From assembly GCA_018334755.1 (NCBI GenBank), contig JAGXLI010000003.1:1-63342 (forward strand): 63,342 nucleotides of DNA. Reading direction: 5' to 3'. The DNA comes from Thermoplasmatota archaeon (GTDB lineage: Archaea > Thermoplasmatota > Thermoplasmata > Halarchaeoplasmatales > Halarchaeoplasmataceae). A program made the position numbers and the translations under genes. Of this stretch, positions 2,133-51,924 are shown piece after piece. Every line of letters starts with the position of its first letter. Positions within the stretch are counted from its first letter, which is position 1. The notes beneath the pieces are model-generated. The model worked only from the letters and a program-made list of their open reading frames with translations, was not told the DNA's origin and ran no database searches.

Positions 2133-2201
2133 ACATCACGCCTTTAAAGACTGAACTCCAAAATTAATTATAGGAGATAATAGTAATCTACCTCTCAATA
2201 C

Positions 2202-8807: not shown

Positions 8808-10712
8808 TTACTTTTCTAGGCCTTCTTCTTCTATCGCCTCTTCTATAGTACCTAAAGCTTCCTCGTCCGCGATGGTTGAAGGTACGTTGTACTCTTCACC
8901 GTCGGCGATCTTCTTCATGGTCCCTCTCAGTGTCTTACCAGATCGTGTCTTAGGCAGCTCGTCGACTATCAGCGCCTTCTTGAAAGACGCTATTGGACCT
9001 ACTTCATCTCTGACTATCTGTATCACTTTTGATTTTATTTCTTCATGATCTTGCTCGACACCCGACTTCAAGACCAAGAAACCCATTGGGACTTCGCCTT
9101 TCAACTCGTCATTGATACCGACTACTGCACACTCGGCGACGGCAGGATGCTTCGCGACGGCTTCTTCCATACTCCCTGTAGAGAGTCTATGTCCGGCTAC
9201 ATTGATGACGTTATCAACTCGTCCCATGATAGATATATAGCCGTCCTCGTCGACGAATCCTGCGTCCCCGGTAAAATAATAGCCCGGGAAGGGATCCATA
9301 TATTCCTGCTTGAATTTTTCTTTGTTGTTCCATAAAGTTATGAAAGTTCCTGGAGGTAAGGGAAGTTTTATAGCAATTACGCCTGTCTCGCCTGGGGGCA
9401 GTTCCTCTCCAGTCTGGGGATCTAATATCTGAAGGTCATATCCTGGCATGGGTTTGGTAGCTGAGCCCGGTTTGATGGGGAACTGCTCTAATCCCCTGAA
9501 GTTCCCGACGATGGGCCATCCAGTCTCCGTCTGCCACCAGTGGTCGATAACCGGGACTTGCAGCAGATCGGAAACCCAGTGATAGGTATCGGGATCGGTC
9601 CTTTCACCCGCTAGAAAGAGCGAATCCAAACCAGAAACGTCGTAATCTTCAAAGTACTCCGCATCTGGATCCTCTCTCTTTACCGCCCTGATAGCAGTGG
9701 GGGCGGTGAACAACACGTCGACGTCATGTTGAGAGATCACCCGCCAAAACGCACCCGGATCGGGGGTACCAACAGGTTTACCTTCATACATGACGGTGGT
9801 AGCGCCGATCAAGAGCGGTGCATAGACGATATAAGAATGACCGACGACCCAGCCGACATCCGAAGCGGCCCAGTAAACGTCCCCGGGTTCTATCCCGTAA
9901 ACATTTCTCATAGACCATTTGAGAGCTACAGAATGCCCTCCATTGTCCCTAACGACGCCTTTGGGTTTTCCTGTGGTTCCAGAGGTATACAATACATAAA
10001 GAGGGTCATTGGCACCTACAGAGACACAGTTTGCAGGATCAGCCTCTTCTTCCAGTTCTTCCCAATCGTAGTCTCTCCCTTCTATAAGTTCGCCTTCATA
10101 TTCTGGCCTCTGTTTGATCACGCATTTCGTTGGCTTGTTCTCTGCCAGCTCTATCGCCTCGTCCAGAAGAGGTTTGTACTCTATGACTTTATCCCGTTCG
10201 ATCCCGCATGATGCAGAAAGTATCACGTCGGGCTCGGCGTCATCCACTCTGATCGCCAATTCGTTGGCTGCAAAACCACCAAAAACGACGGAGTGTACAG
10301 CACCTATACGGGCACAGGCTAACATGGACATCAAGGACTCGGGTATCATGGGCATGTATATAACTACCGTATCGCCTTTCTCGACCCCGAGCTCTCTCAG
10401 GAATCCCGCGATCTTTGAAACCCGCTCTTTCAACTCCTCGAAGCTATATTTCTCGATCGTATCGGTGACAGGGCTGTCATATATGATGGCATCTTGGTCG
10501 CCTCTGCCGTTTTCGATATGATGATCGACTGCATTATAACAGGTATTGAGCTTCCCTCCTGAGAACCATCTATAGAACGGTTTGTTAGACTCATCTAGAA
10601 CTTGATCCCATTTTTCATACCATTCTATATCTTCAGCCGCATCTGCCCAAAATGACCTAGGATTATCTATCGATTCTTCATATGCTTTTTCATACTCATC
10701 CATTTTTTTCAC
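8808..10712 (-). CDS. prpE: AMP-forming acyl-CoA synthetase, PrpE/ACSS3-like (propionate/acetate-CoA ligase)
   Basis: 634 aa. YTSGTTGKPKGVVRDNGG, ASDVGWVVGHSYIVYAPLL, FTAPTAIR, GRVDNVINVAGHRLS, PKTRSGK. The GWVVGHSYIVYAPLL block matches my memory of E. coli PrpE better than Acs. Confidence 0.85.
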   Translation of the reverse strand: MKKMDEYEKAYEESIDNPRSFWADAAEDIEWYEKWDQVLDESNKPFYRWFSGGKLNTCYNAVDHHIENGRGDQDAIIYDSPVTDTIEKYSFEELKERVSKIAGFLRELGVEKGDTVVIYMPMIPESLMSMLACARIGAVHSVVFGGFAANELAIRVDDAEPDVILSASCGIERDKVIEYKPLLDEAIELAENKPTKCVIKQRPEYEGELIEGRDYDWEELEEEADPANCVSVGANDPLYVLYTSGTTGKPKGVVRDNGGHSVALKWSMRNVYGIEPGDVYWAASDVGWVVGHSYIVYAPLLIGATTVMYEGKPVGTPDPGAFWRVISQHDVDVLFTAPTAIRAVKREDPDAEYFEDYDVSGLDSLFLAGERTDPDTYHWVSDLLQVPVIDHWWQTETGWPIVGNFRGLEQFPIKPGSATKPMPGYDLQILDPQTGEELPPGETGVIAIKLPLPPGTFITLWNNKEKFKQEYMDPFPGYYFTGDAGFVDEDGYISIMGRVDNVINVAGHRLSTGSMEEAVAKHPAVAECAVVGINDELKGEVPMGFLVLKSGVEQDHEEIKSKVIQIVRDEVGPIASFKKALIVDELPKTRSGKTLRGTMKKIADGEEYNVPSTIADEEALGTIEEAIEEEGLEK

Positions 10713-10894
10713 CTTTTCGTTCTTCTAAATTTTATCCAACTAATCCAATTTGTTTTTTATGTAAAACCGCTTTCAAATTATGAAAGATAGATTTAAACTC
10801 TTCGATTTGATGAATTTTCTTGAATAGAAGTGGATAGAACATTTTTTGAAATTAGCCGATCACTTGTTCATATATAAGATTTATACTATTTGTT

Positions 10895-12373
10895 CTACTC
10901 TTCATCTATCCCCTGGGTGATCTCTTTCAATTTTTCTCCGTCCTCATCATAGATATTGACCTTCAAGGGGGTCTCGCCCATCGCAGAATGAGTCGCACAG
11001 GCCAAGCAGGGATCGTAAGCTCTGAACGCTCTCTCCACTCTGTTGAGCATGCCCTCTTCGATATTCCCGCCGTCTATGTATTTTTTAGCGGCGTCTCTCA
11101 CGCTCATCGAGATGACCGAAGCGTTGTGATTGGTCGCCACTATGAGGTTGGCGTTCTCTATCAGACCGTCTTCGTCAAGATCGTAGTCGTGTATCAAAGT
11201 CCCACGCGCAGCTTCGACTATCCCGATGCCGCTGCCTGGCTCGCCCGGTTCGTTCCTTATGTTGTCGCTTTCCAGATCTTCGTCCTGTGCCAGATTTTCC
11301 AGCAGTTCGGCCGCCTGCAGAACTTCAATCAACCTGGCCCAGTGATAGGCAAGAGTGGAATGAACGGGGTAACCCAACGTATCGAACATCTCTTCATATT
11401 CCTCCTGGGCTAATTCCGTTTTCATCCCCTCGGCGGTATTGATCCTGCCGAGAGTTCCGACACGATACACACCTGAATCTTCACCATCTTCGAATCCTTC
11501 CCAACCGATCTCCTTGAGGTAAGGGAACTTCATATAACTCCAGGATTCTGTATGTTCTCTTATAACATCGGTATAATCGGCACCGGTAAACGAAGCGAAA
11601 TTGTCTCCATCGGGATCGACCACGTTTACTTCGCCTCCGGTATGGCTCAATTCGCCGTCTTCGGTCAGCCCCATGCTGTAAGTCTCCAACCGGTCCTCCT
11701 TTATGACGTCTTCATACTTCGCTAGAACTTCGTCTTTGAACAGGTCCAGAGTGAATTGAGCGAAATCAACCATATCACCGCTCAATTCTTTCAATTCTTC
11801 TCTCTCCTCTGAACTCAGTGACTTCGTGACACCTCCCGGTAGACCGAAAGCCGGATGTACCGATTTTCCAGCAAGCATCCGGACTATCTTTTGGCCTTTA
11901 CCTCTCTGTCGGATGACTTTCTTTCCTATCTCTTCTCCGACTTCACCGATCACCCCTAAGATGTTCCGTTCCTCCCTAGGTGCGTCGACGCCGACCAAAA
12001 AGTCGGGGCTGGCTAAATAGTAAAAGTGTAATATATGATCGGCGAAGATGTATGCGTTGTAGAAAAGTTCTCTTAACTTCTTAGCGGGCTCCGGCGGTTC
12101 TACATCATAAGCGTCGTCGAGAGCTTTAGAAGCCGCAAGGTGATGAGCTTCGGGGCAGACTCCACATATCCTGTTGGTTATGTTCGGCATATCTTCTGCC
12201 CTTCTACCTTCGCAGAACTTCTCGAATCCTTTGTATTCCGGGACCTGTAGGTAGGCGTTCTTAACCTCTTCATCGTCATCCAAAAATATCTCTATCTTGC
12301 CGTGACCCTCTAAACGAGTTATGGGGTCTATCGATATCTTATTCTCGTTTTTATCAACTTTTTCTTCACTCAT
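10895..12373 (-). CDS. mvhA: [NiFe] hydrogenase large subunit, F420-non-reducing type (MvhA)
   Basis: RLEGHGKIEI, N-terminal RICGVCPEAH and C-terminal DPCLACATHS Ni-Fe ligands followed by a cleavable extension. ATG 12373 overlaps the mvhG stop by 8 nt (ATGAGTGA). Confidence 0.9.
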   Translation of the reverse strand: MSEEKVDKNENKISIDPITRLEGHGKIEIFLDDDEEVKNAYLQVPEYKGFEKFCEGRRAEDMPNITNRICGVCPEAHHLAASKALDDAYDVEPPEPAKKLRELFYNAYIFADHILHFYYLASPDFLVGVDAPREERNILGVIGEVGEEIGKKVIRQRGKGQKIVRMLAGKSVHPAFGLPGGVTKSLSSEEREELKELSGDMVDFAQFTLDLFKDEVLAKYEDVIKEDRLETYSMGLTEDGELSHTGGEVNVVDPDGDNFASFTGADYTDVIREHTESWSYMKFPYLKEIGWEGFEDGEDSGVYRVGTLGRINTAEGMKTELAQEEYEEMFDTLGYPVHSTLAYHWARLIEVLQAAELLENLAQDEDLESDNIRNEPGEPGSGIGIVEAARGTLIHDYDLDEDGLIENANLIVATNHNASVISMSVRDAAKKYIDGGNIEEGMLNRVERAFRAYDPCLACATHSAMGETPLKVNIYDEDGEKLKEITQGIDEE

Positions 12374-13343
12374 CGATATCATCTCTCCTGAACTGCATTA
12401 TACTGCTGGGCAGACTGAACATGTAGAAAGAACCCGTAGGATCTCTAACGCTGTTCATCGTCTCCATCACTTCCTCCTCGGTCTTATTCTCTTCTCCTTC
12501 TATCCCCATGACAGAGGCCAGAGCTGAAGCCATCCTGCTTCCCTGGTCCTCTACGCCCTTGACCGGGCCGTTACAGCCGACGCACGGATGACCCACTTCT
12601 GTACAGGGCGCTTCGCACATCCCCGCAGTGGCGGGGCCCATGCAAAGTATCCCTTGGTCCAATAAACATTCGTCTGGGTCTATGTCGGTCGCCTCCTGTA
12701 TAGGGATCAATCTCTCTATCTCTTTCTCTTCCCTCTCCATAGGACACGGGTCACAGACGCTCTTGTCCGTAATCAGGTCCCTTTCTTCCACTTCGATCTC
12801 ATCATCCAAAAGGGCTGGAAGAGCATCTTCGAGTTGGGTCGGCAGAGGCGGACAGCCAGGAAGATAGTATTCGACATCTATATGTTCATCGAGGGGTTTA
12901 ATATGGTCTAGCATCTCCGCTAATTCGAGTTCCCCTTCTTCGACTTCCGTTATCTTCTGCGGGAACGGACCCTGGTCCGTGGTTTTGTTAGTATAACCTT
13001 TCTCCAGTAGTTCATCCTTACTGGAAAGATTGCCCAGGCCGAAAACCCCTCCGTTGCATGCGCAGGAACCGTAGGAGACAACTTCTTTTGTTTTCTCTCT
13101 CAGTAACTCGACCATCTCCTTGTTCTCGTCAAGCCTTATAGCTCCATTTATGAACATGATGTCTATCTCGTTTTCATCCATGGCCTTTACGTCTTCGTAC
13201 TTGGGATCCATCGCACAGGGCCAAAAGACTATCTCGGCCTGCTCCGCTACATCCAGCAGCATCTCGTCTATATCCAATATACTGACCTGGCATCCTCCGC
13301 AGGACCCAGTCCAGTAAAAGCCTATCTTCTTCTTTTCACTCAT
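12366..13343 (-). CDS. mvhG: [NiFe] hydrogenase small subunit (MvhG)
   Basis: KKKIGFYWTGSCGGCQVSILD and C-terminal Cys clusters (CMGPATAGMCEAPC.. GHPCVGCNGP). ATG 13343 overlaps the mvhD stop by 8 nt. Confidence 0.9.
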   Translation of the reverse strand: MSEKKKIGFYWTGSCGGCQVSILDIDEMLLDVAEQAEIVFWPCAMDPKYEDVKAMDENEIDIMFINGAIRLDENKEMVELLREKTKEVVSYGSCACNGGVFGLGNLSSKDELLEKGYTNKTTDQGPFPQKITEVEEGELELAEMLDHIKPLDEHIDVEYYLPGCPPLPTQLEDALPALLDDEIEVEERDLITDKSVCDPCPMEREEKEIERLIPIQEATDIDPDECLLDQGILCMGPATAGMCEAPCTEVGHPCVGCNGPVKGVEDQGSRMASALASVMGIEGEENKTEEEVMETMNSVRDPTGSFYMFSLPSSIMQFRRDDIDE

Positions 13344-13779
13344 CGGTATCGTCCTCCAGTGAAGTACCGTCAAGATTTAGGGGGCCTATTTCCTTGACCT
13401 CCTCTGTCATCTCTTCCATGACCCTTGCAAATTTACCGCCTTCAGCCGAAGAGATCCATTCCAACCTCAACCTCGTTGGCTTGATACCGAAATCTTCCAT
13501 GATCTTCTTCATCAGGTCCGCTTTTCTTATCGTTTTATAATTACCGTTGATATAGTGGCAGTCCCCGGGATGGCACCCCGCGATCAATACTCCGTCAGCT
13601 CCTTTCTTGAACGATCTTAAGACGTGTTCGGGAGAAACCCTCGAGGAACACATGACTTTGATATTCAATATGTTAGCAGGATACTGTTCTCGGCTCACAC
13701 CGGCCAGGTCAGCACCGGCGTAACTGCACCAGTTGCAAAGGAAGGCTATTATTTTTGGTTCGAAGTCTTCGTCACTCAT
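13336..13779 (-). CDS. mvhD: Methyl-viologen-reducing hydrogenase delta subunit (MvhD)
   Basis: 147 aa. KIIAFLCNWCSYAGADLAG ... VMCSSRV ... AGCHPGDCHY signature. Confidence 0.9.
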   Translation of the reverse strand: MSDEDFEPKIIAFLCNWCSYAGADLAGVSREQYPANILNIKVMCSSRVSPEHVLRSFKKGADGVLIAGCHPGDCHYINGNYKTIRKADLMKKIMEDFGIKPTRLRLEWISSAEGGKFARVMEEMTEEVKEIGPLNLDGTSLEDDTDE

Positions 13780-13780
13780 C

Positions 13781-15751
13781 TTATCCCTCCTCCTCGGTCA
13801 GCCCCGCATCTATCATCGCTTCTAACATCTCATCTTTGAAGCCTTTATGCTCGATAGCCCCGGTCGGACATAGAGATGCGCAGGAGCCGCATCCCATACA
13901 TAGGACATCGGTTATCTCCGCGACCTCGTCTTCTTCATTGTATTCGATAGCGTCGTAGGGGCACACCGAAATACACATCTTACACCCGCTGCAGATATCA
14001 TCATCGATACTAGCTATGGTGGCTTCTGATTGTAATTTATCTTTAGATAAAATGGTAGAAGCTTTTGCGGCGGCTCCAGAAGCCTGAGATACCGAGTCGG
14101 GGATATCTTTCGGGCCTTGACAGCACCCTGCGATGAATATGCCGTTCGTGAAAGTATCCATAGGCCGCAACTTGGGATGTGCCTCCTGCAGAAAGCCGTC
14201 ACTAGACCGGGTGATGCGTAACTGTCTAGACAGTTCCTCAGTCCCCTCGCTCGGAAGCAGTGCAGGGACCAAAACGACAAGATCGGATTCCACCTGAAGG
14301 AGCTTATCCATGGTCGTATCGAAGACGTTAAGTTCTACCTTTTCTTCTTGAACGTTCACTTCCGAGGGCCTACCGCGTACGAAGTTGACATCTAAATCTC
14401 TCGTTCTCCTGTAGAACTCTTCATAGCCCTTTCCGAAGGAGCGGATATCGGTATAGCAGATGTTTATGTCCACGTCTTCGTCCAGATGGTCTCTCAATAG
14501 ATGTACATGCTTCAAGGCGCCCATACACCCTATCCTGCAGCAGTAAGATTGTAATTCTTCGTCTCTAGAACCGACGCAGAGGATGAAGGTCACGCTCTCC
14601 ACGTCTTCTCCATCCGATAATCTGTGTATCTCACCATCGGTCGGTCCCGAAGCATCTATTATCCTCTCCAATTCTAAATTCGTGATTATATCCTTAGACT
14701 TTCCATAACCGTACTCGTAAATTTTCTCAGGATCCATGAGATCGTAGCCGGTTGCTACGATTATAGAGCCCACGTTCAATTCTACGATCTCATCCTCGTC
14801 ATCAAGATCTATAGCGTCGAGCTCGCAGACTTCTCTACAGGATGTGCAGGTACCATCATATTCTAGAGAAATACAAACTTCGGAGTCGATGGTATAAGCG
14901 GCGGGAACCGCTTGGGGAAACGGAGTATATATCGCCCCTCTATTGTCCAATCCTTCGTTGAACTCGTCTTCGACGTTCCCACTCCTCCTACATGCTTCTG
15001 CACAATCTCCACATGCGGTACACTTGTCCCAGTCGACATAAGTGGCCTTCTTCTTCACTTTCACCTCAAAGTCCCCAACGCTGCCATCCACCTCTTCGAC
15101 CTCGGAATAAGTCAATAATTCGATATTCGGATTACGAGCTACGTCGGTCATCTTCGGAGTCAAGATACAGGAGGAACAGTCTAGAGTAGGAAAAGTTTTG
15201 TCCAACTGAGCCATCTTTCCGCCTATACTGGGTTCTCGTTCGACCAAGTAGACTTTTTTACCCTGGTCGGCCAGGTCCAGCGCGGACTGGATACCGGCGA
15301 TCCCTCCACCGATCACCAATGCATCTGAATTGACATCTACCTCGGTCTTCTCAAGGTCTTCAGATAAACGAGACTTCTCTACGCTCATCTCTACCAAGTG
15401 TTTTGCCTTCTCCGTGGCTTTTTCCATATCGTCGCTGTGGACCCAAGAGCATTGTTCCCTAATATTGGCCATCTGGAAGCGATAGGGATTTAAACCAGCG
15501 TCCTCAACGACCGCTTGGAATGTCTCTTCGTGCATCCTGGGAGAACAGGCCGCAACGACCACCGAGTCCAGATCCTGCTCTTCGACACTATCTTTGATCA
15601 GTTCTTGACCGGGGTCGGAACACATATATTTGTAATTAGTGGCAAAGGTCACTCCATTCAGATCTGAAGCGTATTCCGTCAGTTCATCCACATCCACAGT
15701 TCCGGCGATGTTGCTTCCACAGTGACATATAAAGACTCCTATCCCTGACAT
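13781..15751 (-). CDS. hdrA: Heterodisulfide reductase subunit A (HdrA)
   Basis: 656 aa. IGVFICHCGSNIAG, FAD fold ALVIGGGIAGIQSALDLA, inserted and C-terminal 2x[4Fe-4S] ferredoxin motifs (CTACGDCAEAC; CSGCKMCISVCP; CMGCGSCASLCP). Confidence 0.93.
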   Translation of the reverse strand: MSGIGVFICHCGSNIAGTVDVDELTEYASDLNGVTFATNYKYMCSDPGQELIKDSVEEQDLDSVVVAACSPRMHEETFQAVVEDAGLNPYRFQMANIREQCSWVHSDDMEKATEKAKHLVEMSVEKSRLSEDLEKTEVDVNSDALVIGGGIAGIQSALDLADQGKKVYLVEREPSIGGKMAQLDKTFPTLDCSSCILTPKMTDVARNPNIELLTYSEVEEVDGSVGDFEVKVKKKATYVDWDKCTACGDCAEACRRSGNVEDEFNEGLDNRGAIYTPFPQAVPAAYTIDSEVCISLEYDGTCTSCREVCELDAIDLDDEDEIVELNVGSIIVATGYDLMDPEKIYEYGYGKSKDIITNLELERIIDASGPTDGEIHRLSDGEDVESVTFILCVGSRDEELQSYCCRIGCMGALKHVHLLRDHLDEDVDINICYTDIRSFGKGYEEFYRRTRDLDVNFVRGRPSEVNVQEEKVELNVFDTTMDKLLQVESDLVVLVPALLPSEGTEELSRQLRITRSSDGFLQEAHPKLRPMDTFTNGIFIAGCCQGPKDIPDSVSQASGAAAKASTILSKDKLQSEATIASIDDDICSGCKMCISVCPYDAIEYNEEDEVAEITDVLCMGCGSCASLCPTGAIEHKGFKDEMLEAMIDAGLTEEEG

Positions 15752-15752
15752 A

Positions 15753-16640
15753 TCATTCCGCCTCCTCGATACTCTCGATGGCTTCTAAGTTATCTACGGG
15801 ACTCAGATTTAATTCCAGTCCTAATCTAGATTGCTCGATGCCCATCGCGACCCCCAATAGTTGGATATAATACATCACCGGTAGATCCAAAGATTCACCG
15901 ATCGTATCTGCGGCGCTATCCTGTTTAGAATCTAACATCCTATGACCCCACGGACAGATGGTTGATAGACCGTCGAAGCCTTGATCCTGCACCGCTTCAA
16001 TTTTTTCCCCCGCCTTCGTAAGGGCCGATTCATTGTGATCCGAAATGACCTGACCTCCGCAGCAGTCTAGTTTCTCTGGATAATCTTCGGTTCCTATCCC
16101 GATTGTCTCCATAAGCTCTTCCAATTTCTGGGGATTCTCGGAATCGTCAGGTCTATCCAGATCGTTAGGTCTGATCGTATTACAGCCGTAATGAGCGGCA
16201 AAAGTAAGATCATCAAGAGGTTCTTCCACCTGATCTTCTATCTCGTCTAAACCGATCTCGTCGTGCAGTAGATCCAGTGTATGATATAGTTCCGTACTCC
16301 CCTCGTATTGTAAGTCCTCTTCCTCCAGCTTAGAGTTTATCTTGTCTTTCAGCTCCGGATTTTCTTCCAGACTCTCCTTCGCCTCTGTCAAACCCAGATG
16401 ACAGATCGGGCACGGCGCGTAGAGGTCTATACCCTTCTTCTCACAGAGCGCCATGTTCCTCGCGGAAAGGTACATAGTCGTGAACATATTGACATTCCGA
16501 AGAGGGGCTCCACAGCAGGTAGATTCCTCTAGATCTACCAACTCTATATCGAATTTTGGGAGCACTTCTCTGATCGACATCTCATAGCCGTACTGTTCTG
16601 TCGGGATAACACATCCAAGATAAAGGCCGAGTTCCTTCAT
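15753..16640 (-). CDS. hdrB: Heterodisulfide reductase subunit B (HdrB)
   Basis: Two CCG domains (ESTCCGAPL; KLDCCGGQ). ATG 16640 preceded by GGTGA, 5 nt after the hdrC stop. Confidence 0.9.
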   Translation of the reverse strand: MKELGLYLGCVIPTEQYGYEMSIREVLPKFDIELVDLEESTCCGAPLRNVNMFTTMYLSARNMALCEKKGIDLYAPCPICHLGLTEAKESLEENPELKDKINSKLEEEDLQYEGSTELYHTLDLLHDEIGLDEIEDQVEEPLDDLTFAAHYGCNTIRPNDLDRPDDSENPQKLEELMETIGIGTEDYPEKLDCCGGQVISDHNESALTKAGEKIEAVQDQGFDGLSTICPWGHRMLDSKQDSAADTIGESLDLPVMYYIQLLGVAMGIEQSRLGLELNLSPVDNLEAIESIEEAE

Positions 16641-16645
16641 AATAA

Positions 16646-17191
16646 TCACCTCAGTTTCTCCTGAGTCGCTTTCATCAATATCTGTTGGACTTTATCCATA
16701 TCTTCAGGTTCAGGTACTGGGGGTAGATCAAGGTCTTCCCTTTTTCTGGTTTCGTTAGCCCGGTTCAGAACCTCTTTAGGTTGCTGGATCAGACCGTTTC
16801 CGAGCACCGACTGCAGCATCTTCTGATAGCCGCTGGGTATCTCTTTTCCCGCGGCCACGGCAAGGTTCTTCAGGGCAAAAATTACCCGGACCGGGGAAAG
16901 GTCCTGCGGGCATCTTTCTTGGCATTTGAAACACTGCATGCATGTCCAGATCTCGTCTGAATTCACCAGCTCGTCTATAAAACCGGCCTTAGATTTCCCC
17001 ATGATGGAATGAGGTTCCAGTTCCAGCAATATAAAGGCCTCACATCCGGAGGTACATTTACCGCACTGGTAGCAGAGGTCCGGTATATCCTCCTTTAAGC
17101 CTTCTAACGTTTCTTCTATCTTTTCCTGCTCCTCTTCATCCGGTTCTGCCATCGAGGTTAAGTCTATCAAGCTCATCTTTTCACGGCTCAC
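16646..17191 (-). CDS. hdrC: Heterodisulfide reductase subunit C (HdrC)
   Basis: CYQCGKCTSGCE and CMQCFKCQERCP motifs. Possible starts are GTG 17191 (abutting the crt stop) or ATG 17176. Confidence 0.9.
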   Translation of the reverse strand: MSREKMSLIDLTSMAEPDEEEQEKIEETLEGLKEDIPDLCYQCGKCTSGCEAFILLELEPHSIMGKSKAGFIDELVNSDEIWTCMQCFKCQERCPQDLSPVRVIFALKNLAVAAGKEIPSGYQKMLQSVLGNGLIQQPKEVLNRANETRKREDLDLPPVPEPEDMDKVQQILMKATQEKLR

Positions 17192-17953
17192 TCATTCTCC
17201 TGTGAAGTCGGCCTCTCTTTTTTCAATGAATGCTTCCAAACCTTTTTCGTGGTCCTCGGTTTTGAAACATCTCTCAAACTGTTCGGATTCTATTTTTAAA
17301 CCCTCGTCAAGAGAAACTTCGATCCCCTTGTTCATCGATGATTTGGCGTATTCAAGGGCTAACGGCGCATTAGAACATATCTCTTCGGCTATCTCAAAAG
17401 AGAAATCCATAAGTTCATCTGCTTCCACTACGTGATTGGCCAGCCCTAATCTTTTAGCCTCTTCGGCATCGATATTCTTACCGGTAAATATCAATTCCTT
17501 CGCAGGACCCATGCCTATCAACCTCGCTAATCGCTGGGTCCCGCCGAATCCCGGAATGAGCCCCAGTCCCACTTCTGGTTGGCCGAACTGTGCCTTTTCG
17601 GAGGCGATGATGAAATCACAGCTCATGGCGATCTCAGTGCCCCCGCCGAGGGCGAAACCGTTAACTGCCGCTATCACCGGCTTAGGAAAATTTTCTATAC
17701 GATTCAAGACGGACTGACCTTTTTGGGAAAACTCCCTCGCTTCTTTGGGGTCCATCTCTTTCATCTGTTTGATATCGGCTCCTCCGACGAAGGCCTTACC
17801 TTTTCCCGTCATTATGACCGCTCTGCTTTCGTCGTCCTTCACTTCGTCCAACTTCTCATCTAATTCGTCCAAAAGTTCCCTACATACCGCATTTACCGGA
17901 GGATTGTTCAATTTGATTACAGTGATATGATCCTCTCTTTCTATCTCGATCAT
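17192..17953 (-). CDS. crt: Enoyl-CoA hydratase (crotonase)
   Basis: 253 aa. ALGGGTEIAMSCDFIIA ... FGQPEVGLGLIPGFGGTQRL, with both catalytic Glu present. Confidence 0.9.
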   Translation of the reverse strand: MIEIEREDHITVIKLNNPPVNAVCRELLDELDEKLDEVKDDESRAVIMTGKGKAFVGGADIKQMKEMDPKEAREFSQKGQSVLNRIENFPKPVIAAVNGFALGGGTEIAMSCDFIIASEKAQFGQPEVGLGLIPGFGGTQRLARLIGMGPAKELIFTGKNIDAEEAKRLGLANHVVEADELMDFSFEIAEEICSNAPLALEYAKSSMNKGIEVSLDEGLKIESEQFERCFKTEDHEKGLEAFIEKREADFTGE

Positions 17954-17964
17954 TTAAATCACCT

Positions 17965-18816
17965 TTAGCTGTAGTCGTAGAAGCCTTTTCCACTTTTCCT
18001 GCCCAGTTCTCCAGCTCTAACCTTCTTTTTTAGGAGGGGGCATGGTCTATACTTTGAATCGTTGAATTCCTCGTAAAGGACCTCCATTATATGGAGTACG
18101 GTATCTAGGCCGATCAAGTCACCCAATTCTAACGGGCCCATGGGATGATTCATCCCCAGCTTCATGACCTGATCTACGTCCTCGACCTCTGCAACACCGG
18201 TCTCTACACAGTAGATCGCTTCGTTGATCATCGGGATCAAAACCCGGTTGGAAACAAACCCGGGTGAATCGTTAACTTCTACCGGTTCTTTCCCCATCTC
18301 CTCGGCTAGAGAAACTATGGTATCAGTGGTTTCATCTGAGGTCGTCAAAGCTCGTATGACCTCGACTAGATCCATCTTCGGGACCGGATTCATGAAGTGC
18401 ATCCCTATGAATTTCTCTGGCCTCTCGGTGATCCCGGCCATCTTGGTTATCGGGATCGTGGAGGTGTTGGAGGCCAATATAGTATCTGGACCACACAGTT
18501 CGTCCAGCTCTTGGAACACTTCTTTCTTTATCTCGAAGTCTTCAACCACCGCCTCTATGATGAGGTCACAATCGCTCAAGTCCTCTAGTTCAAGGGTGGT
18601 CTCGATCCTCCCCAGTATCTCCTCTTTCTCTTCTTCCGAGATCCTATCTTTTTCCACTCCTTTGGACAGCGATCTCTTTATCCCCTTCATGCCGTTATCT
18701 AAAAATTCCTGTTTGATGTCTCTCATAACGACTTCGTGACTAGCTGTGGCCGAGACTTGGGCTATACCGTGACCCATCGTTCCTGCGCCGACTACTCCTA
18801 TCTTTTCTATATCCAT
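17965..18816 (-). CDS. hbd: 3-hydroxybutyryl-CoA dehydrogenase
   Basis: 283 aa. [42 protein letters not shown], typical Hbd/HADH. Confidence 0.92.
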
Positions 18817-18844
18817 CTTAACTACCTCTTTTTGTCTTCAATAT

Positions 18845-20023
18845 TTATATCTCAACGAGCATCGTAACTGCATTTCCACCGCCTAGGCATGCAGTAGCTA
18901 GACCTCTTCCTCCTCCTCTCTGTTTCAACGCGTAGAGAAGAGTCGTTAGAATCCGAGCGCCACTGCATCCTATCGGGTGACCGAGCGCCACGGCTCCGCC
19001 GTGGACGTTGAATTTATCATCAGGAATGTCAAATTCCTTCTGTACAGCTGCAGAAGCGGAAGCGAAGGCCTCATTATGCTCTATCAAGTCAAGGTCCGAG
19101 ATGTCAAGATCGTTCCTTTCTAAGATCGTTTTTATCCCGGGTATTGGAGCTTCCATCACATTCTTGGGTTTAACTCCAGACGTGTAATAATCCACTATCT
19201 TAGCCATCGGTTCGACCCCCTTTTCTTTAGCTTTTTCTTCGCTCGTCACCACGGTGGCAGAGGAACCAGCGGATATCTGTGAGGCGTTCCCCGCAGTTAT
19301 GTATCCATCATCCTGGAACGCCGGTGAAAGCTTGCTGAGGTCGTCAAGTGAAGTGTCTGGCCGGATGCCTTCGTCTTCCTCGAATATTTTCGCGTCGCCT
19401 CTCCTCTGAGGCACCTCTACTGGGACTATCTCATCGTCAAATTTCCCATTTTCCCTTGCTTCGGCTGCGAGTTGATGGCTCCGGAGAGCGAATCTGTCAA
19501 CGTCTTCTCTGCTCAGATCAAATCTCTCTGCTATCCTATCTCCGGTGATCCCCATATGAAAATCGTTAAAGTAATCCCAGAGACCGTCGTAGACCATCGC
19601 ATCTACTAGGTCCCCGTCATTCATTCTATACCCATATCTTGCCTTCCTCAGGATATAGGGCGCTTTATCCATATTTTCCATCCCGCCGGCTACTATGGTA
19701 TCGTATTCATTAGCCTTGATACTGTTAGCGGCGTTCATAATGGTCTTTAGCCCCGAGCCGCAGACTTTGTTAACAGTAACGGCTCCGACATCTACCGGCA
19801 TATCGGCACCTAAAGCGGCCTGGCGAGCAGGATTCTGTCCCATCCCCGCCGATAATACCAGTCCCATCTGGACTTCATCTACATCTTCCTTCTTTATACT
19901 GGCTCTATCAACAGCCTCATCGATTGTGATACTACCCAGTTTTGGGGACCGCATATCCTTCAACGTTCCACCAAATTTACCGATCGGTGTTCTTACCGCA
20001 GAAACTATTACAGGATCTTTCAT
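18845..20023 (-). CDS. thl: Acetyl-CoA C-acetyltransferase (bacterial-type thiolase II)
   Basis: 392 aa. VNKVCGSGLK (nucleophile Cys), NEAFA, GGAVALGHPIGCSGAR, CLGGGNAV. Confidence 0.93.
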   Translation of the reverse strand: MKDPVIVSAVRTPIGKFGGTLKDMRSPKLGSITIDEAVDRASIKKEDVDEVQMGLVLSAGMGQNPARQAALGADMPVDVGAVTVNKVCGSGLKTIMNAANSIKANEYDTIVAGGMENMDKAPYILRKARYGYRMNDGDLVDAMVYDGLWDYFNDFHMGITGDRIAERFDLSREDVDRFALRSHQLAAEARENGKFDDEIVPVEVPQRRGDAKIFEEDEGIRPDTSLDDLSKLSPAFQDDGYITAGNASQISAGSSATVVTSEEKAKEKGVEPMAKIVDYYTSGVKPKNVMEAPIPGIKTILERNDLDISDLDLIEHNEAFASASAAVQKEFDIPDDKFNVHGGAVALGHPIGCSGARILTTLLYALKQRGGGRGLATACLGGGNAVTMLVEI

Positions 20024-20081
20024 GGTTATTTCTCCTTTTAAATCTCATTTAACATATTGCGGAGGAAGATATAGAAACCAT

Positions 20082-20090
20082 CTATTTAAG
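20082..20090 (-). promoter_or_regulatory. Possible internal TATA box ahead of thl
   Basis: Minus-strand CTTAAATAG in the only sizeable spacer (126 nt) of the acd...mvhA array, about 60 nt upstream of the thl ATG. A GGAG box sits 8 nt before the ATG. Confidence 0.25.
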
Positions 20091-20149
20091 ATTGGCGAAA
20101 AGGATAGAAGGTTGAATTCTTTGAGCGGATAAGTGAAGTCTATCTAGGG

Positions 20150-21106
20150 TCAACCTTTTTCCTCGTTTATCGCCTCGACCAATTTCGGCACCACTTCATA
20201 GAGATCTCCTACGATGCCGTAGTCCGCCGATTCGAAGATAGGGGCGTCCTCGTCTTTGTTTATCGCCACGACGGTTCCAGAATCACGCATACCGGCTATA
20301 TGTTGGATCTGTCCGGATATCCCGATAGCTACGTAAAGCTCCGGCTTCACTTCGTGTCCCGAAAGACCTATCCAGTGATCCTCGGGGAGCCATTTAAGAT
20401 CAGCAGCGATGGGCCGAGAACAGCCTATAGTTCCTCTTTCGAGGGCTTCACTAAGGTCCTCTGCAAGATCTAGATCCTCCTGATTCTCGAAACCCCGACC
20501 GCAGGAGACTATTATCTCGGCATCCTCGACGTTGACTCCCTCACTTTCTTTTTCCTGGACATCTATGATCTTCGATTCCGCCTCGATAACTTCTAGTTCT
20601 TCTCGGGTTATCTCACCTTCTCTTCCTTCATCCTTGGACAAGGGATCGAAGTTCTTCGACGGGATCGTTACAATAGAGGGTTCTGATATGAAATTTTTCA
20701 CGGCGACCGCGTTTCCGCTGTACGCGACCCTTTCAGCAGTTAAGGTGCCATCCTCGAAGTAAAGATCGGTACAGTCGGTCACGCAGCCGGTCTCCAGCTT
20801 TGCCGCTAATCTAGGAGCTATTTCCTTTCCACTCTTATCGGAACCGATCAATACGATCTCCGAATCGGTCTTTTCTACCAGCTTTTTCAAAACTTGAGTG
20901 TACTCTTCTGCCTTGAATTGCTCTATATCCGTGTTAGCGAGGATAACTTCATCTGACCCATGGTAGATCAACTCGTTAGCAACCTCATCATCATCTTCTC
21001 CGATGATCACAGAGGTCACCTTACTGCCCGTTTCATCTGCTAATTCCCTTCCTTTGGCTATCAATTCTTTAGTTGTATCTTTATCGTCAGAATATATCAG
21101 CACCAT
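20150..21106 (-). CDS. etfA: Electron transfer flavoprotein large (alpha) subunit
   Basis: 318 aa. C-terminal FAD domain with VAIGISGQIQHIAGM. No N-terminal ferredoxin domain. Confidence 0.9.
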   Translation of the reverse strand: MVLIYSDDKDTTKELIAKGRELADETGSKVTSVIIGEDDDEVANELIYHGSDEVILANTDIEQFKAEEYTQVLKKLVEKTDSEIVLIGSDKSGKEIAPRLAAKLETGCVTDCTDLYFEDGTLTAERVAYSGNAVAVKNFISEPSIVTIPSKNFDPLSKDEGREGEITREELEVIEAESKIIDVQEKESEGVNVEDAEIIVSCGRGFENQEDLDLAEDLSEALERGTIGCSRPIAADLKWLPEDHWIGLSGHEVKPELYVAIGISGQIQHIAGMRDSGTVVAINKDEDAPIFESADYGIVGDLYEVVPKLVEAINEEKG

Positions 21107-21108
21107 CT

Positions 21109-21882
21109 TTATCCCTCCAGTAAACCCTCTTTGGCAATATTTTCGGCCAGATTTTTAACAGAATCTTCTAACTCGTCCTCGTCGAATATGATGTTCTTAC
21201 GTTCCATGGAAACGCCTCTTATGTCCTTCATTTCCGTAGTAGGTTCAATCTCATGATCCATGAATTCCTTCGGTCCCCATTCGTTTATGGGTTTATTTGC
21301 CGCCCCTAGGATCTCCTGAAGGCTCGGTAATCGGGGGTCATTTATTTCTTTAGTTACGGTGACAACAACAGGGTAGGGCGATTCCACTGTCATGATCTTG
21401 TTTCCGCCGACATCCCTTTCACCGACTATCTTCTCCTCTTCAACATCAAGGTTTTCGGCATAAGTGATCTGAGGGACATTCAACAACTCAGCTATCCTGG
21501 GTCCAACTTGACCGGAGAACAGATCGATGGAGGCTTCGCCGCACAGCACCAGATCGATATCGCCGATCTCTTCGACAGCGCCGGCCAATAGTTCAGAGAC
21601 AACCGTATAGTCAGATTCTTCCGGTGGAGATATAATCACCGCTTCGTCAGCCCCCATGGCGAGTAACTCTTTCATATTCTCCATGTTATCCACGGACCCG
21701 ACGGTCAAAATAGTTATCTCTCCGCCGTATTCCTCTTTAATCTTTATAGCCTCCTCGACAGCACTTTTTTCTATATCGTTGACTTCCTTCGAGATACCTT
21801 CTAGGATCGGCTTATTCGTTTTTTCGTCTATCTTTATCTCTGAAACATCGACGACTTCCTTGGCACAGACCGCGATATTCAT
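21109..21882 (-). CDS. etfB: Electron transfer flavoprotein small (beta) subunit
   Basis: MNIAVCAKEV..., VLCGEASIDLFSGQVGPRIAELLNVPQITY. ATG 21882 lies 10 nt after the acd stop; the TTG 21891 of the ORF track is less likely. Confidence 0.9.
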   Translation of the reverse strand: MNIAVCAKEVVDVSEIKIDEKTNKPILEGISKEVNDIEKSAVEEAIKIKEEYGGEITILTVGSVDNMENMKELLAMGADEAVIISPPEESDYTVVSELLAGAVEEIGDIDLVLCGEASIDLFSGQVGPRIAELLNVPQITYAENLDVEEEKIVGERDVGGNKIMTVESPYPVVVTVTKEINDPRLPSLQEILGAANKPINEWGPKEFMDHEIEPTTEMKDIRGVSMERKNIIFDEDELEDSVKNLAENIAKEGLLEG

Positions 21883-21892
21883 CTTTATCAAC

Positions 21893-23053: not shown

Positions 23054-23063
23054 CTAAATAAAA
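23054..23063 (-). promoter_or_regulatory. TATA-like box for acd (leaderless geometry)
   Basis: Minus-strand TTTTATTTAG centred about 26 nt upstream of ATG 23032. Confidence 0.35.
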
Positions 23064-23149
23064 TTTTCGTCCCAGGATGTTTGTCAGTAAAGAGCCAAGA
23101 CTGGCTCAAATCTCGAATGTGGTTCCCGAGCTTTAGGATAAAATTCCGT

Positions 23150-24216: not shown

Positions 24217-24220
24217 CTTG

Positions 24221-37783: not shown

Positions 37784-37786
37784 ATA

Positions 37787-51822: not shown

Positions 51823-51907
51823 GCGGGGATAGCCAAGAGGTCAACGGCGAAGGATTGCTAATCCTTTGTCCCATAGGGACACGCGGGTTCAAATCCCGCT
51901 CCCCGCG
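51823..51907 (+). tRNA. tRNA-Ser (anticodon GCU)
   Basis: Acceptor GCGGGGA/TCCCCGC with G73. Anticodon stem AAGGA/TCCTT with loop TTGCTAA. Long variable arm GTCCC-ATA-GGGAC. T arm GCGGG-TTCAAAT-CCCGC. CCA not encoded. Confidence 0.93.
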
Positions 51908-51924
51908 CTCAAGTATTCGCGCTC

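Follow-up and report, generated by a model that had tools for sequence, protein, structure and literature searches.

Modules related to HdrBC are known to exchange electrons with ETF. In mycobacteria, EtfD is an HdrBC homologue and the ETF acceptor (PMC13083937), and in the class II benzoyl-CoA reductase the HdrA-like BamE passes the high-potential electron via the HdrBC-like BamD to ETF, then ETF and butyryl-CoA dehydrogenase reduce crotonyl-CoA in vitro; the distal noncubane cluster of BamD is disrupted through Cys loss (bioRxiv 10.64898/2026.04.10.717634). For the MvhADG-HdrABC enzymes of Asgard and other archaea, an undefined thiol/disulfide pair is the standard assumption (PMC7015854; PMC9723716), and the function of the Ca. 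Natronoplasma group 3c hydrogenase has been explicitly called unclear (PMC11287216).

The locus described here lies in a stretch of 63,342 nt, hereafter the window, from a halophilic Thermoplasmatota archaeon that is kin of Ca. Natronoplasma and belongs to a lineage described in the literature as fermentative or heterotrophic. It holds 12 co-directional minus-strand genes, bcd-etfB-etfA-thl-hbd-crt-hdrC-hdrB-hdrA-mvhD-mvhG-mvhA, whose identities were assigned from Pfam, NCBIfam and PDB matches, and which are listed here with their flanking features from the highest to the lowest coordinate:

23150..23677, minus strand: hexapeptide-repeat (gamma-CA/PaaY/CaiE-like) protein, Hexapep, just upstream of bcd
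23055..23069, minus strand: putative archaeal promoter (BRE/TATA, CGAAAATTTTATTTA), TATA centre ~27 nt upstream of the bcd ATG
21893..23032, minus strand: bcd, short-chain (butyryl-CoA-type) acyl-CoA dehydrogenase, all four ACAD Pfam domains
21109..21891, minus strand: etfB, ETF small subunit, Pfam ETF, divergent b-FAD motif
20150..21106, minus strand: etfA, ETF large subunit, Pfam ETF and ETF_alpha
20024..20149, minus strand: etfA-thl spacer, 126 nt, conserved CTTAAATA at 20083-20090, Shine-Dalgarno-like AAAGGAG at 20032-20038
18845..20023, minus strand: thl, acetyl-CoA C-acetyltransferase, Thiolase_N/C, TIGR01930 453 bits (above cutoff)
17965..18816, minus strand: hbd, 3-hydroxybutyryl-CoA dehydrogenase, 3HCDH_N/3HCDH, NF004474 450 bits (cutoff 408)
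17192..17953, minus strand: crt, short-chain enoyl-CoA hydratase (crotonase), ECH_1 245 bits, NF004475 330 bits
16646..17191, minus strand: hdrC, 2x[4Fe-4S] subunit, Fer4_17/Fer4_8, eight Cys as two CxxCxxCxxxC motifs
15753..16649, minus strand: hdrB, CCG-domain subunit, CCG x2, ~180 bits to methanogen HdrB structures
13781..15751, minus strand: hdrA, FAD and Fe-S bifurcating flavoprotein, 748 bits full length to 8rvu_a and 5odc_A
13336..13779, minus strand: mvhD, [2Fe-2S] adaptor, FlpD 180 bits
12366..13373, minus strand: mvhG, NiFe hydrogenase small subunit, Oxidored_q6, VhuG-like 190 bits, 14 Cys
10895..12382, minus strand: mvhA, group-3 NiFe hydrogenase large subunit with C-terminal maturation extension
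8808..10712, minus strand: short-chain acyl-CoA synthetase, AMP-forming (acetate/propionate), assigned by Pfam, PrpE 767 bits, AcsA 680 bits
7999..8790, minus strand: SatP/YaaH-family acetate/succinate channel, Gpr1_Fun34_YaaH
6801..7964, plus strand: family III CoA-transferase, CoA_transf_3 351 bits, position kept in the related loci L081-L084

The original prediction had described the run from thl to mvhA as a unit ending at 20023. Its coordinates, strand and gene identities are confirmed, and its spacers are reproduced with internal ATG starts (28, 11, 0/15, 5 (or -4), 1 and 1 nt, then two 8-nt overlaps; the full range from thl to mvhA is -38 to 28 nt), with the crt TGA directly abutting the hdrC GTG at 17191, as claimed. 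However, bcd-etfB-etfA (20150-23032), directly upstream on the same strand, had been overlooked. Chance as the source of this gene run is excluded, because the 12 co-directional genes keep their order in independent assemblies, by which an assembly chimera is ruled out as well. None of the 12 proteins has a predicted transmembrane segment, and no thiol/disulfide carrier is encoded among the operon genes. The description of the context as clostridial-type was misleading, since the nearest relatives of the window are Thermoplasmatota and its marker genes are archaeal (TBP, a ribosomal P0 that contains the L10P insert, the trio of archaeal thiolase, HMGCS and DUF35 genes, PAC2, and what is probably a tRNA with an intron).

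Regarding transcription, the BRE/TATA element before bcd is identical in the alignment of the window with L081, L086 and L090, where the surrounding spacer sequence varies, and we infer from this a promoter, which by its position ~27 nt from the bcd ATG would give a leaderless or near-leaderless transcript from bcd. The etfA-thl spacer, aligned with L085, L081 and L090, is a possible internal promoter with a 5' UTR; given this candidate, expression of bcd-etfBA could be separate from that of the genes that follow.

At least five independent assemblies contain the whole operon, with HdrB identities of 85-91%, the order bcd-etfBA-thl-hbd-crt-hdrCBA-mvhDGA-acs-satP being repeated in GCA_048620515.1, GCA_046545875.1 and Logan SRR21542049/SRR21542051 (HdrB 85%) and in GCA_036626195.1 (HdrB 91%). 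Across lineages, the core bcd-etfBA-(thl-hbd-crt)-hdrCB-hdrA is kept down to 54-67% identity, and the electron-input module differs among relatives, being a Mvh hydrogenase, a GltD/NfnB-like or a FrhB-like module. In L086, mvhDGA stands apart from the operon in convergent orientation; in L088/L089 hdrCB comes immediately after etfA and precedes an NfnAB/GltD-like module and hdrA; L090 has a giant HdrA/GltD-like protein with MvhD and a FrhB-like protein; L103 has crt-acd-etfBA-hdrCBA-mvhD, L105 has acd-etfBA-hdrCB followed by an HdrA-GltD-MvhD fusion, and L004 has etfA-hdrCBA. In Bathyarchaeia (L015/L016/L033), hdrACB-acd adjoins etfAB. The identities of Bcd, EtfA, EtfB and HdrB fall together between relatives (e.g., 95/85/88/84% and 70/60/61/67%), a stepwise shared divergence that fits one inherited cassette. 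Moreover, eight of the nine sampled contexts of the 'CPWG' HdrB clade (34 tips), the window included, are Etf-linked, and the ninth ends at a contig edge.

All six Mvh-Hdr subunits share 36-55% identity with their methanogen counterparts, MvhA scoring 397 bits against 7t2r_D and 365 bits against MvhA 5odc_F, and all Hdr and Vhu equivalog scores stay below the NCBIfam cutoffs (HdrC, 80 bits to TIGR03290 with a cutoff of 160; HdrB, 218 bits to TIGR03288 with a cutoff of 345). The claim that all cofactor motifs are intact holds for MvhA (RICGVC and DPCLAC), for the two HdrC motifs and for the FAD site and Fe-S cysteines of HdrA, whose cluster cysteines align with 8rvu_a/5odc_A, but it fails at the C-terminal CCG domain of HdrB. 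Of the ten cluster cysteines of this subunit, nine are present: the N-terminal motif has all five, and the C-terminal one (C156...C196C197...C232-P-W-G235) is without its fifth, bridging Cys, Gly235 aligning with Cys234 of M. thermolithotrophicus HdrB, the bridging Cys that is displaced by substrate. The Gly is common to the whole HdrB clade, and 2-residue deletions stand behind both CC motifs. The substitution differs from those of EtfD and BamD both in kind and in the CCG domain affected. The same Cys-to-Gly change occurs in a separate HdrB clade with no ETF nearby (nuoBCDI-like-hdrA/mvhD-hdrCB operons), and a canonical five-Cys HdrB adjoins etfA in L004. At the altered site the catalytic iron would be permanently open, which is still compatible with the reduction of another disulfide.

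Taken with the EtfD and BamD precedents, these features suggest that crotonyl-CoA, via ETF, takes the place of the methanogen heterodisulfide as electron sink. The best explanation, drawn from synteny, motifs and analogy and held with evenly balanced confidence, is that MvhADG-HdrABC-EtfAB-Bcd may form a soluble, cytoplasmic system of flavin-based bifurcation or confurcation between H2 and crotonyl-CoA plus ferredoxin, whose high-potential output would be the Bcd-EtfAB couple, hence crotonyl-CoA/butyryl-CoA, and not CoM-S-S-CoB. H2 would be oxidised at MvhA and the electrons conveyed via MvhG and MvhD to the FAD of HdrA, to be split there, one passing along the low-potential branch to ferredoxin via the HdrA ferredoxin domains, and the high-potential branch running through the HdrC cubane clusters, the HdrB CCG clusters, the ETF alpha-FAD and the Bcd FAD to crotonyl-CoA. 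The latter would be made from acetyl-CoA by Thl, Hbd and Crt of the same transcript. The net reaction would be 2 H2 + Fd(ox) + crotonyl-CoA -> Fd(red)2- + butyryl-CoA + 2 H+, with ~-60 kJ/mol by textbook potentials. The reverse, from butyryl-CoA and Fd(red) to 2 H2, is possible in principle and would be feasible only at ~1 Pa H2 or less; if run, it would be a membrane-independent route to syntrophic butyrate oxidation. The ETF-HdrB contact, the stoichiometry and the in vivo direction are presumed in this scheme, and operon linkage falls short of proof for a physical ETF-HdrB interaction. The non-methanogenic module joining H2 uptake or evolution to short-chain acyl-CoA redox chemistry, as originally predicted, is consistent with the synteny and the altered HdrB site, although its likeliest physical link, bcd-etfBA, had been missed.

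The main rival, which we consider rather unlikely, is that two independent bifurcating enzymes are only co-transcribed, sharing a ferredoxin pool and a regulon: an NADH-dependent, clostridial-type Bcd-EtfAB, and a Mvh-Hdr that reduces some other small or protein disulfide (the 'X-S-S-X' of archaea that are not methanogens). Bcd, EtfA and EtfB all match best to subunits of established NADH-bifurcating complexes, Bcd to 5ol2_C of the C. difficile Bcd-EtfAB complex (451 bits; its best NCBIfam match is AcrC with 519 bits, below the cutoff of 640), EtfA, which has no N-terminal ferredoxin domain, to CarE, 5ol2_A and LctC, and EtfB to the bifurcating CarD/EtfB/LctB (109-131 bits, vs 79 bits for the human protein). 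The ETF is overall most like NADH-dependent bifurcating ETFs, and its b-FAD motif, DLFSGQVGP against the reference DGDTAQVGP, keeps five of nine positions including QVGP, so Bcd-EtfAB could be a self-sufficient NADH/ferredoxin enzyme; however, two of the four changed positions are mutated in a variant without b-FAD (motif definition and variant from PMC9232219). The complete five-Cys site of HdrB, the standard assumption of an undefined thiol/disulfide pair and the candidate internal promoter between etfA and thl agree with two separate enzymes, but neither the operon nor its neighbourhood encodes a carrier or an enzyme that forms disulfides, and it would remain unexplained why hdrCB stays by acd-etfBA despite the exchange of input modules and why hdrC directly follows etfA in L088, L103, L105 and L004.

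It is improbable that Mvh-Hdr is a general ferredoxin/H2 redox valve of fermentation (H2-evolving confurcation or H2 recycling), placed in the butyrate operon for co-regulation only and with no specific high-potential partner among its products. Such a role would suit L086, where mvhDGA is detached from the operon and convergent, L104, with mvhDGA-hdrCBA and no etf in view, and the faster divergence of mvh compared to the other operon genes in L081 (67-81% vs 84-95%). Nevertheless, thermodynamics demand a high-potential partner for HdrA-type bifurcation, an established mechanism (PMC5861303), and the part kept with etf and acd is hdrCB, not mvh.

Far less probable is the action of Hdr on a protein-bound dithiol, e.g., a lipoylated carrier as in sHdr/LbpA systems, as had been speculated from genes for LplA and a radical SAM enzyme between 37 and 40 kb. 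For Culexarchaeia, GcvH was put forward as a partner of HdrB (PMC9723716), but the lplA-radical SAM genes of the window, 17 kb away, are an ordinary LplA/LipS2-type set (LplA large subunit and LipS2-like radical SAM enzyme) of general lipoylation, no GcvH/LbpA, DsrC, TusA, DsrE or rhodanese gene is seen within the window, and the locus has no sHdr hallmarks, such as duplicated hdrB and hdrC. Among the loci examined, no conserved linkage of lplA-LipS2 to hdr was found, the sole match, L069, being unrelated. Hardly credible is a conventional H2:CoM-S-S-CoB heterodisulfide/ferredoxin oxidoreductase from a methanogenic ancestor, still serving CoM/CoB reactions whose genes lie in another part of the genome, since, even with six of six subunits present and methanogenic Methanomassiliicoccales belonging to Thermoplasmatota, HdrB has only one of the two bridging cysteines that substrate displaces, both of its CC loops deviate, every equivalog score is below cutoff, the lineage is described as fermentative or heterotrophic, and, as originally noted, no methanogenesis genes were found across the 63 kb window.

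In the preferred ETF-linked system, acetate and butyrate would be handled by the adjoining acyl-CoA synthetase, SatP channel and CoA-transferase, the last of which may carry out acyl-CoA:carboxylate CoA transfer. The synthetase gene, separated from the operon by a 182-nt gap and probably having its own promoter, follows mvhA in L081-L084 and, in L086, comes immediately behind hdrA; satP is kept in L081-L084 and is located within the operon, between etfA and thl, in L086. The hexapeptide-repeat gene, a possible further member of the unit, is also found 5' of bcd in L081/L082 and L086.

The nine open reading frames on the minus strand between 10895 and 20023 were identified by Pfam, NCBIfam and PDB sequence searches as thiolase, 3-hydroxybutyryl-CoA dehydrogenase, crotonase, HdrC, HdrB, HdrA, MvhD, MvhG and MvhA, in the order and at the positions of the original prediction. 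Its spacer lengths are recovered when internal ATG starts are used, and the TGA of crt directly abuts the GTG at 17191. The crt/hdrC junction has no room for a promoter, and the six subunit genes hdrC, hdrB, hdrA, mvhD, mvhG and mvhA are all contiguous. The unit had been taken to start at thl, which is wrong, as three further genes lie immediately upstream on the same strand:

21893-23032, minus strand: bcd, short-chain acyl-CoA dehydrogenase, at the upstream end of the unit
21109-21891, minus strand: etfB, electron-transfer flavoprotein (ETF) subunit, between bcd and etfA
20150-21106, minus strand: etfA, ETF subunit, immediately upstream of thl

Gaps of 1-2 nt separate bcd, etfB and etfA, followed by 126 nt to thl. 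The host being archaeal, BRE/TATA-like elements were sought by the alignment of relatives. Upstream of bcd, such an element of 15 nt, CGAAAATTTTATTTA (23055-23069), is invariant in four lineages among which the spacer around it is not conserved, and its TATA centre lies about 27 nt from the bcd ATG, suggesting a transcript starting at bcd that would be leaderless. The etfA-thl spacer contains a conserved CTTAAATA and a Shine-Dalgarno-like AAAGGAG, and may therefore hold a second, internal promoter. No transmembrane segment is predicted in the 12 operon proteins (the top Kyte-Doolittle score over 19 residues is 1.36, below the level of a transmembrane helix), so the system would be cytoplasmic.

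Regarding the host, the clostridial-type setting first assigned to these genes has to be given up, as the window is archaeal by gene content, encoding a TATA-binding protein, ribosomal L1, P0 with an L10P insertion, a PAC2 proteasome-assembly protein and the archaeal thiolase/HMG-CoA-synthase/DUF35 trio. The pI of the 13 cluster proteins is 4.1-5.0 throughout, as expected of a salt-in halophile. Among species-representative genomes, the nearest HdrA proteins come from Thermoplasmata/Thermoplasmatota MAGs with 58-66% identity, while in a larger protein collection the nearest HdrB sequences (91% and 85% identity) are named Candidatus Thermoplasmatota-type and Candidatus Natronoplasma. The latter genus, known from soda and salt lakes, belongs to the halophilic order Ca. 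Halarchaeoplasmatales/Haloplasmatales, and the lineage is described as a non-methanogenic heterotroph (PMC11332174, PMC11287216). Methanogenesis genes are absent from the 63-kb window, as had been noted from the start, and so are genes for Mcr and for CoM/CoB biosynthesis.

The relatives were gathered through HdrB homologues; an exact-sequence look-up of the window HdrA gave no match. Contigs of the NCBI MAGs GCA_048620515.1 and GCA_046545875.1 and of two independent Logan assemblies share a common order, namely a hexapeptide protein, bcd, etfB, etfA, thl, hbd, crt, hdrC, hdrB, hdrA, mvhD, mvhG and mvhA, followed by an acyl-CoA synthetase, SatP and a CoA-transferase, and a third MAG, GCA_036626195.1 (HdrB 91%), has the same order up to its contig end. 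Since this order recurs in independent MAGs and Logan assemblies, an assembly chimera, which the original prediction had named as a possible refutation, is excluded. With falling HdrB identity, acd-etfB-etfA-(thl-hbd-crt)-hdrC-hdrB-hdrA stays together and the electron-input module varies, as listed below.

Gene order at more distant loci of relatives, with identity to the window HdrB
L086, 67%: SatP between etfA and thl; acyl-CoA synthetase after hdrA; mvhDGA convergent, 2.7 kb off
L088/L089, 63%: etfA, directly hdrC-hdrB, two TPP-domain proteins, ferredoxin, NfnA/NfnB(GltD)-like pair, hdrA
L090, 61%: hdrCBA, then a 1502-aa HdrA/GltD-like protein, MvhD and an FrhB-like protein
L103, 60%: crt-acd-etfBA-hdrCBA-mvhD
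L105, 54%: acd-etfBA-hdrCB, then a 1260-aa HdrA-GltD-MvhD fusion
L004 (Thermoplasmatota MAG), 54%: etfA-hdrCBA
L015/L016/L033 (Bathyarchaeia), 47-49%: hdrA-hdrC-hdrB-acd beside etfAB

Thus etfA directly adjoins hdrC in L088, L103, L105 and L004, and in several bacterial loci etfBA stands directly upstream of hdrA-mvhD. A neighbour-joining tree built from 125 HdrB sequences places the window inside a clean clade of 34 tips, which takes in every sampled ETF-linked Thermoplasmatota locus except L004, whose HdrB (P0034) has the canonical cysteines and lies outside it. Linkage to ETF is seen in eight of the nine sampled contexts of this clade, the window's own counted; in the ninth (L104), the contig ends 4.8 kb upstream of hdrB. 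Bcd, EtfB, EtfA and HdrB diverge roughly in parallel among the relatives, which fits inheritance as one unit.

Canonical HdrB carries two noncubane [4Fe-4S] clusters, held by two five-cysteine CCG motifs. In the reference 5odc_B these are cysteines 9, 41, 42, 78, 81 and 153, 193, 194, 231, 234, as placed by HMMER alignment. In the window HdrB, the N-terminal motif is complete (C13, C45, C46, C80, C83), and the C-terminal motif has C156, C196, C197 and C232, followed by Gly235 at the position of Cys234 (C232-P-W-G235-H versus C231-P-F-C234-H in 5odc_B). Cys81 and Cys234 are the bridging cysteines of HdrB, displaced by the substrate (PMC13083937). The statement that all motifs are intact is then correct for MvhA (RICGVC and DPCLAC motifs plus the C-terminal extension), for HdrC (CxxCxxCxxxC twice) and for HdrA, which can be aligned over its entire length with methanogen HdrA (748 bits) and keeps the cluster cysteines, but not for HdrB. 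A 6-residue insertion in the Cys motif of the HdrA inserted ferredoxin domain was set aside, being common in non-methanogen HdrA and hence uninformative.

The glycine occurs as CPWG[HQ] in all 34 members of the window's HdrB clade and as CP[FY]GG in a second clade of 15 sequences, where the change arose independently, while more distant Thermoplasmatota HdrB keep the cysteine as CPWCH. Compared with methanogen HdrB, two residues are also missing after each of the two CC motifs throughout the Thermoplasmatota-type family. The operons of the second glycine clade carry nuoB/C/D/I-like genes, an hdrA-mvhD fusion, hdrC and hdrB, and etf genes are absent from their vicinity, so a Cys-to-Gly change does not by itself single out ETF-linked operons. 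A metagenome scan with HdrB yielded one sister clade and nothing else, its operons having hdrA/mvhD-hdrC-hdrB behind nuoBCDI-like genes. This second clade comprises L091-L100 (e.g., L097 4665-10861), the fusion there having 775 aa and the nuoB/C/D/I-like genes being of group-4-hydrogenase or complex-I-like type; by sequence, these operons look as if a soluble Hdr had been linked to a module akin to complex I. In L097, hdrB is followed by methyltransferase and radical SAM genes, which were compared with the radical SAM and methyltransferase genes of the window at 37.8-39.3 kb; the two sets share no similarity, and the supposed correspondence was rejected.

Compared with the methanogen MvhADG-HdrABC complex (PDB 5ODC, 8RVU), the window shares all six subunits and their order, hdrCBA-mvhDGA, as well as the MvhA NiFe site, the two cubane motifs of HdrC and an HdrA that matches over its full length, with FAD and all Fe-S cysteines, and H2-driven bifurcation at the HdrA FAD presumably proceeds in the same way. 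The differences lie in HdrB, with Gly235 for the bridging Cys234 and both CC loops two residues shorter, and in the embedding of the genes in a butyryl-CoA/ETF operon of a non-methanogen. All NCBIfam equivalog scores also remain below their cutoffs, with 218 against 345 for HdrB, 80 against 160 for HdrC, 662 against 1400 for HdrA, 858 against 1100 for HdrA2, 396 against 800 for VhuA, 190 against 450 for VhuG and 129 against 215 for VhuD. Due to the HdrB changes, the sub-cutoff scores and the genomic setting, CoM-S-S-CoB is unlikely to be the substrate of this Hdr.

Meanwhile, the best PDB match of Bcd is 5ol2_C from the bifurcating complex of C. difficile (451 bits), other short-chain acyl-CoA dehydrogenases being similar as well. 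EtfA and EtfB match 6fah_A/5ol2_A and 6fah_B/5ol2_B best, ahead of non-bifurcating ETFs, being nearest to the bifurcating CarDE, 5OL2, LctBC, 4KPU and FixAB and less like the non-bifurcating ETFs of human, Paracoccus and Geobacter. Each subunit is therefore nearest to the family of clostridial Bcd-EtfAB (PDB 5OL2, 4KPU), with the same crotonyl-CoA/butyryl-CoA reaction at Bcd, and yet the b-FAD recognition stretch of EtfB, DGDTAQVGP in known bifurcating ETFs (PMC9232219), reads DLFSGQVGP in the window. Five of the nine positions are identical, and F and S stand in place of D124 and T125, which belong to the six residues mutated in a b-FAD-less variant. This variant type is conserved in all Hdr-linked archaeal ETFs, reading DSFSGLVGP in Bathyarchaeia. 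The archaeal host and the proposed donor, HdrCB/H2 rather than NADH, are further differences from the clostridial enzyme.

It is possible, at somewhat less than an even chance in our estimate, that a methanogen-type HdrBC was turned from disulfide chemistry to the reduction or oxidation of ETF, within a soluble and undescribed MvhADG-HdrABC-EtfAB-Bcd supercomplex or pathway. Electrons from H2 would pass through MvhAG and MvhD to the HdrA FAD, from which the low-potential electron would reach ferredoxin, and the high-potential one would flow over HdrC, HdrB and the ETF alpha-FAD to Bcd and crotonyl-CoA, a path proposed from the synteny and from the analogy with EtfD and BamE-BamD-ETF. In the forward direction, H2 electrons would be bifurcated to ferredoxin and crotonyl-CoA; in reverse, the electrons of butyryl-CoA and ferredoxin would be confurcated to H2. 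The potentials concerned are -414 mV for H2, about -500 mV for ferredoxin, about -10 mV for crotonyl-CoA/butyryl-CoA and about -140 mV for CoM-S-S-CoB. As computed from these textbook values, the forward reaction yields about -60 kJ/mol, which is more favourable than the methanogen reaction, while in the opposite direction (butyryl-CoA + Fd(red) -> 2 H2) it is calculated to come close to equilibrium only with H2 at about 1 Pa. The co-location of an AMP-forming short-chain acyl-CoA synthetase, a SatP channel and a CoA-transferase would tie the unit to the interconversion of acetate and butyrate, and we lean slightly towards an H2-consuming, butyryl-CoA-forming direction in vivo. The whole proposal is built on sequence, synteny and analogy.

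The closest mechanistic analogue, by comparison of components, is class II benzoyl-CoA reductase, where the HdrA-like BamE passes the high-potential electron to ETF via BamD, an HdrBC-like protein whose distal noncubane cluster is short of one Cys ligand through its loss; the docking of ETF was seen in situ beside the BamD clusters, and crotonyl-CoA was reduced in vitro by ETF and butyryl-CoA dehydrogenase (bioRxiv 10.64898/2026.04.10.717634). Both systems combine an HdrA-type flavoprotein and ETF with an HdrBC-like CCG module in which a Cys ligand of one noncubane cluster is missing. However, the donor would be H2 via Mvh here and is Fd(red) plus NADH via BamGHI there; the low-potential acceptor is presumably free ferredoxin here and the tungsten BamB there; HdrB and HdrC are separate here and fused in BamD; and ETF and Bcd are encoded within the operon here. 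Neither the operon nor the window contains AOR-family (BamB/BamC-type) or NuoEFG-like genes. The missing cysteine also differs from that of BamD: with HdrA canonical, HdrB lacks a single Cys ligand, replaced by Gly in the C-terminal CCG motif, at a residue and CCG domain unlike the losses in BamD and EtfD.

Mycobacterial EtfD is an HdrBC homologue with modified CCG clusters that connects ETF to menaquinone, and EtfD/EMO proteins of mycobacteria and syntrophic bacteria likewise exchange electrons with ETF in beta-oxidation through an HdrBC-homologous Fe-S module (PMC13083937). EtfD and BamD are thus two recent experimental cases of electron exchange between ETF and an HdrBC-like module. They are membrane proteins with heme b that reduce quinone, unlike the window system, which has no predicted transmembrane segment, HdrA/Mvh as the partner, and HdrC (181 aa) and HdrB (298 aa) as separate proteins instead of a fusion; it would thus be a soluble, ferredoxin-coupled alternative to EtfD/EMO. 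In FlxABCD-HdrABC, HdrABC-MvhD-MetVF and Hdr-Fdh, input and output modules are also swapped around HdrA (PMC6687939, PMC5736913), but in none of them is a NiFe hydrogenase paired with ETF/acyl-CoA dehydrogenase as the output.

The main rival explanation is that an ordinary NADH-dependent bifurcating Bcd-EtfAB and an Mvh-Hdr reducing an undefined disulfide are merely co-expressed, as would fit an ETF that overall resembles the bifurcating ones, the one five-Cys site kept in HdrB and the possible internal promoter in the etfA-thl spacer. Against it, hdrCB persistently adjoins etfBA/acd, the input modules are exchanged around hdrCB and etfBA/acd, and no gene for a thiol carrier is present in the operon. 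A role of Mvh-Hdr as a generic redox valve is less likely. The same holds for a lipoyl-protein as the Hdr substrate; the sulfur-oxidising sHdr-LbpA systems have duplicated hdrB and hdrC, in contrast to the single copies here, and no lbpA, dsrE, tusA or rhd neighbours were seen within the 63-kb window. The conventional CoM-S-S-CoB role is also less likely. A 4-hydroxybutyrate-cycle reading of thl-hbd-crt with MCM was rejected, as 4-hydroxybutyryl-CoA dehydratase is missing and bcd-etfBA has no role in those cycles.

Mvh-Hdr is widespread in bacteria and in non-methanogenic archaea (Asgard, Bathyarchaeia, Thermoplasmatota and Culexarchaeia), and in Asgard and Culexarchaeia the high-potential Hdr substrate is routinely drawn as an undefined "X-S-S-X" (PMC7015854, PMC9723716). 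Papers on this lineage and its relatives treat mvh, hdr and beta-oxidation genes apart, at most loosely suggesting Hdr for electron disposal (PMC12220078), and the role of the group 3c hydrogenase of Ca. Natronoplasma is called unclear (PMC11287216). An Mvh-Hdr-Etf-Bcd operon or complex is not described in the full-text literature searched, whose coverage is incomplete. Each module is known by itself, and a precedent for linking HdrBC to ETF appeared very recently. Considering its conserved linkage and the clade-specific change in the HdrB catalytic site, the locus offers a concrete, testable candidate for X, namely ETF/Bcd with crotonyl-CoA. If the proposed wiring is true, ETF would be the X that has long been sought, for one or more families of non-methanogenic Mvh-Hdr complexes, syntrophy's problem of butyryl-CoA oxidation would have a membrane-free answer, and an H2-dependent crotonyl-CoA reductase would join the list of bifurcating enzymes. 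The HdrBC-to-ETF wiring recently shown for benzoyl-CoA reductase would also be carried over to archaea and hydrogen metabolism, and models of hypersaline and other anoxic sediments would have to treat H2 cycling and the formation or oxidation of butyrate differently.

Several further features were observed around the operon and in its relatives. The hexapeptide-repeat gene (gamma-carbonic-anhydrase/PaaY/CaiE-like; 23150-23677, minus strand) is immediately upstream of bcd, as in L081/L082 and L086, and by sequence its product may be an acyl-CoA thioesterase-type accessory protein. Beside the bcd operon there is a split methylmalonyl-CoA-type mutase (B12 subunit 23809-24216, MeaB 24191-25168, large subunit 25202-26881) with a CobA adenosyltransferase (26894-27448), a synteny kept in L081, L086 and L090; methylmalonyl-CoA and butyryl/isobutyryl-CoA are its candidate substrates. 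The gene annotated as acs (8808-10712, minus strand) scores higher as propionate-CoA ligase PrpE (767 bits) than as AcsA (680 bits), under both equivalog cutoffs, and its substrate range may be broader than acetate. In L088, the insert between hdrB and hdrA (10866-15175) encodes two consecutive TPP_enzyme_C-only proteins of about 260 aa each, together with a small ferredoxin and the NfnAB-like pair, an unusual combination.

On the plus strand at 37025-40566, four genes encode an LplA large subunit, a LipS2-like radical SAM lipoyl synthase (218 bits, under the cutoff of 270), a SAM methyltransferase and a LarA-like NPN-dependent 2-hydroxyacid racemase, whose best match is the malate racemase LarAH6 (340 bits, under the cutoff of 500). 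Homologues of the latter with 45% identity lie 3-7 kb from hdrCBA in three Thermoplasmatota loci (L002, L010 and L012), a proximity that could reflect chance or a weak functional link. Two large open reading frames of 691 and 590 aa at 57-3974 (plus strand) have no Pfam match at E<=1e-5. At 56001-58000, the GC content drops to 0.372, against about 0.46 elsewhere, overlapping a BNR/Asp-box repeat protein (56434-57738), and this segment may be acquired DNA. A tRNA at 62767-62867 (plus strand; Rfam 57.5 bits, 101 nt against a 71-position model, no ARAGORN match) is most likely an intron-containing archaeal tRNA. Finally, a 997-aa protein with a response-regulator receiver, multiple PAS and GAF domains is encoded at 48762-51755 (plus strand), with a tRNA-Ser(GCT) directly downstream at 51823-51908.
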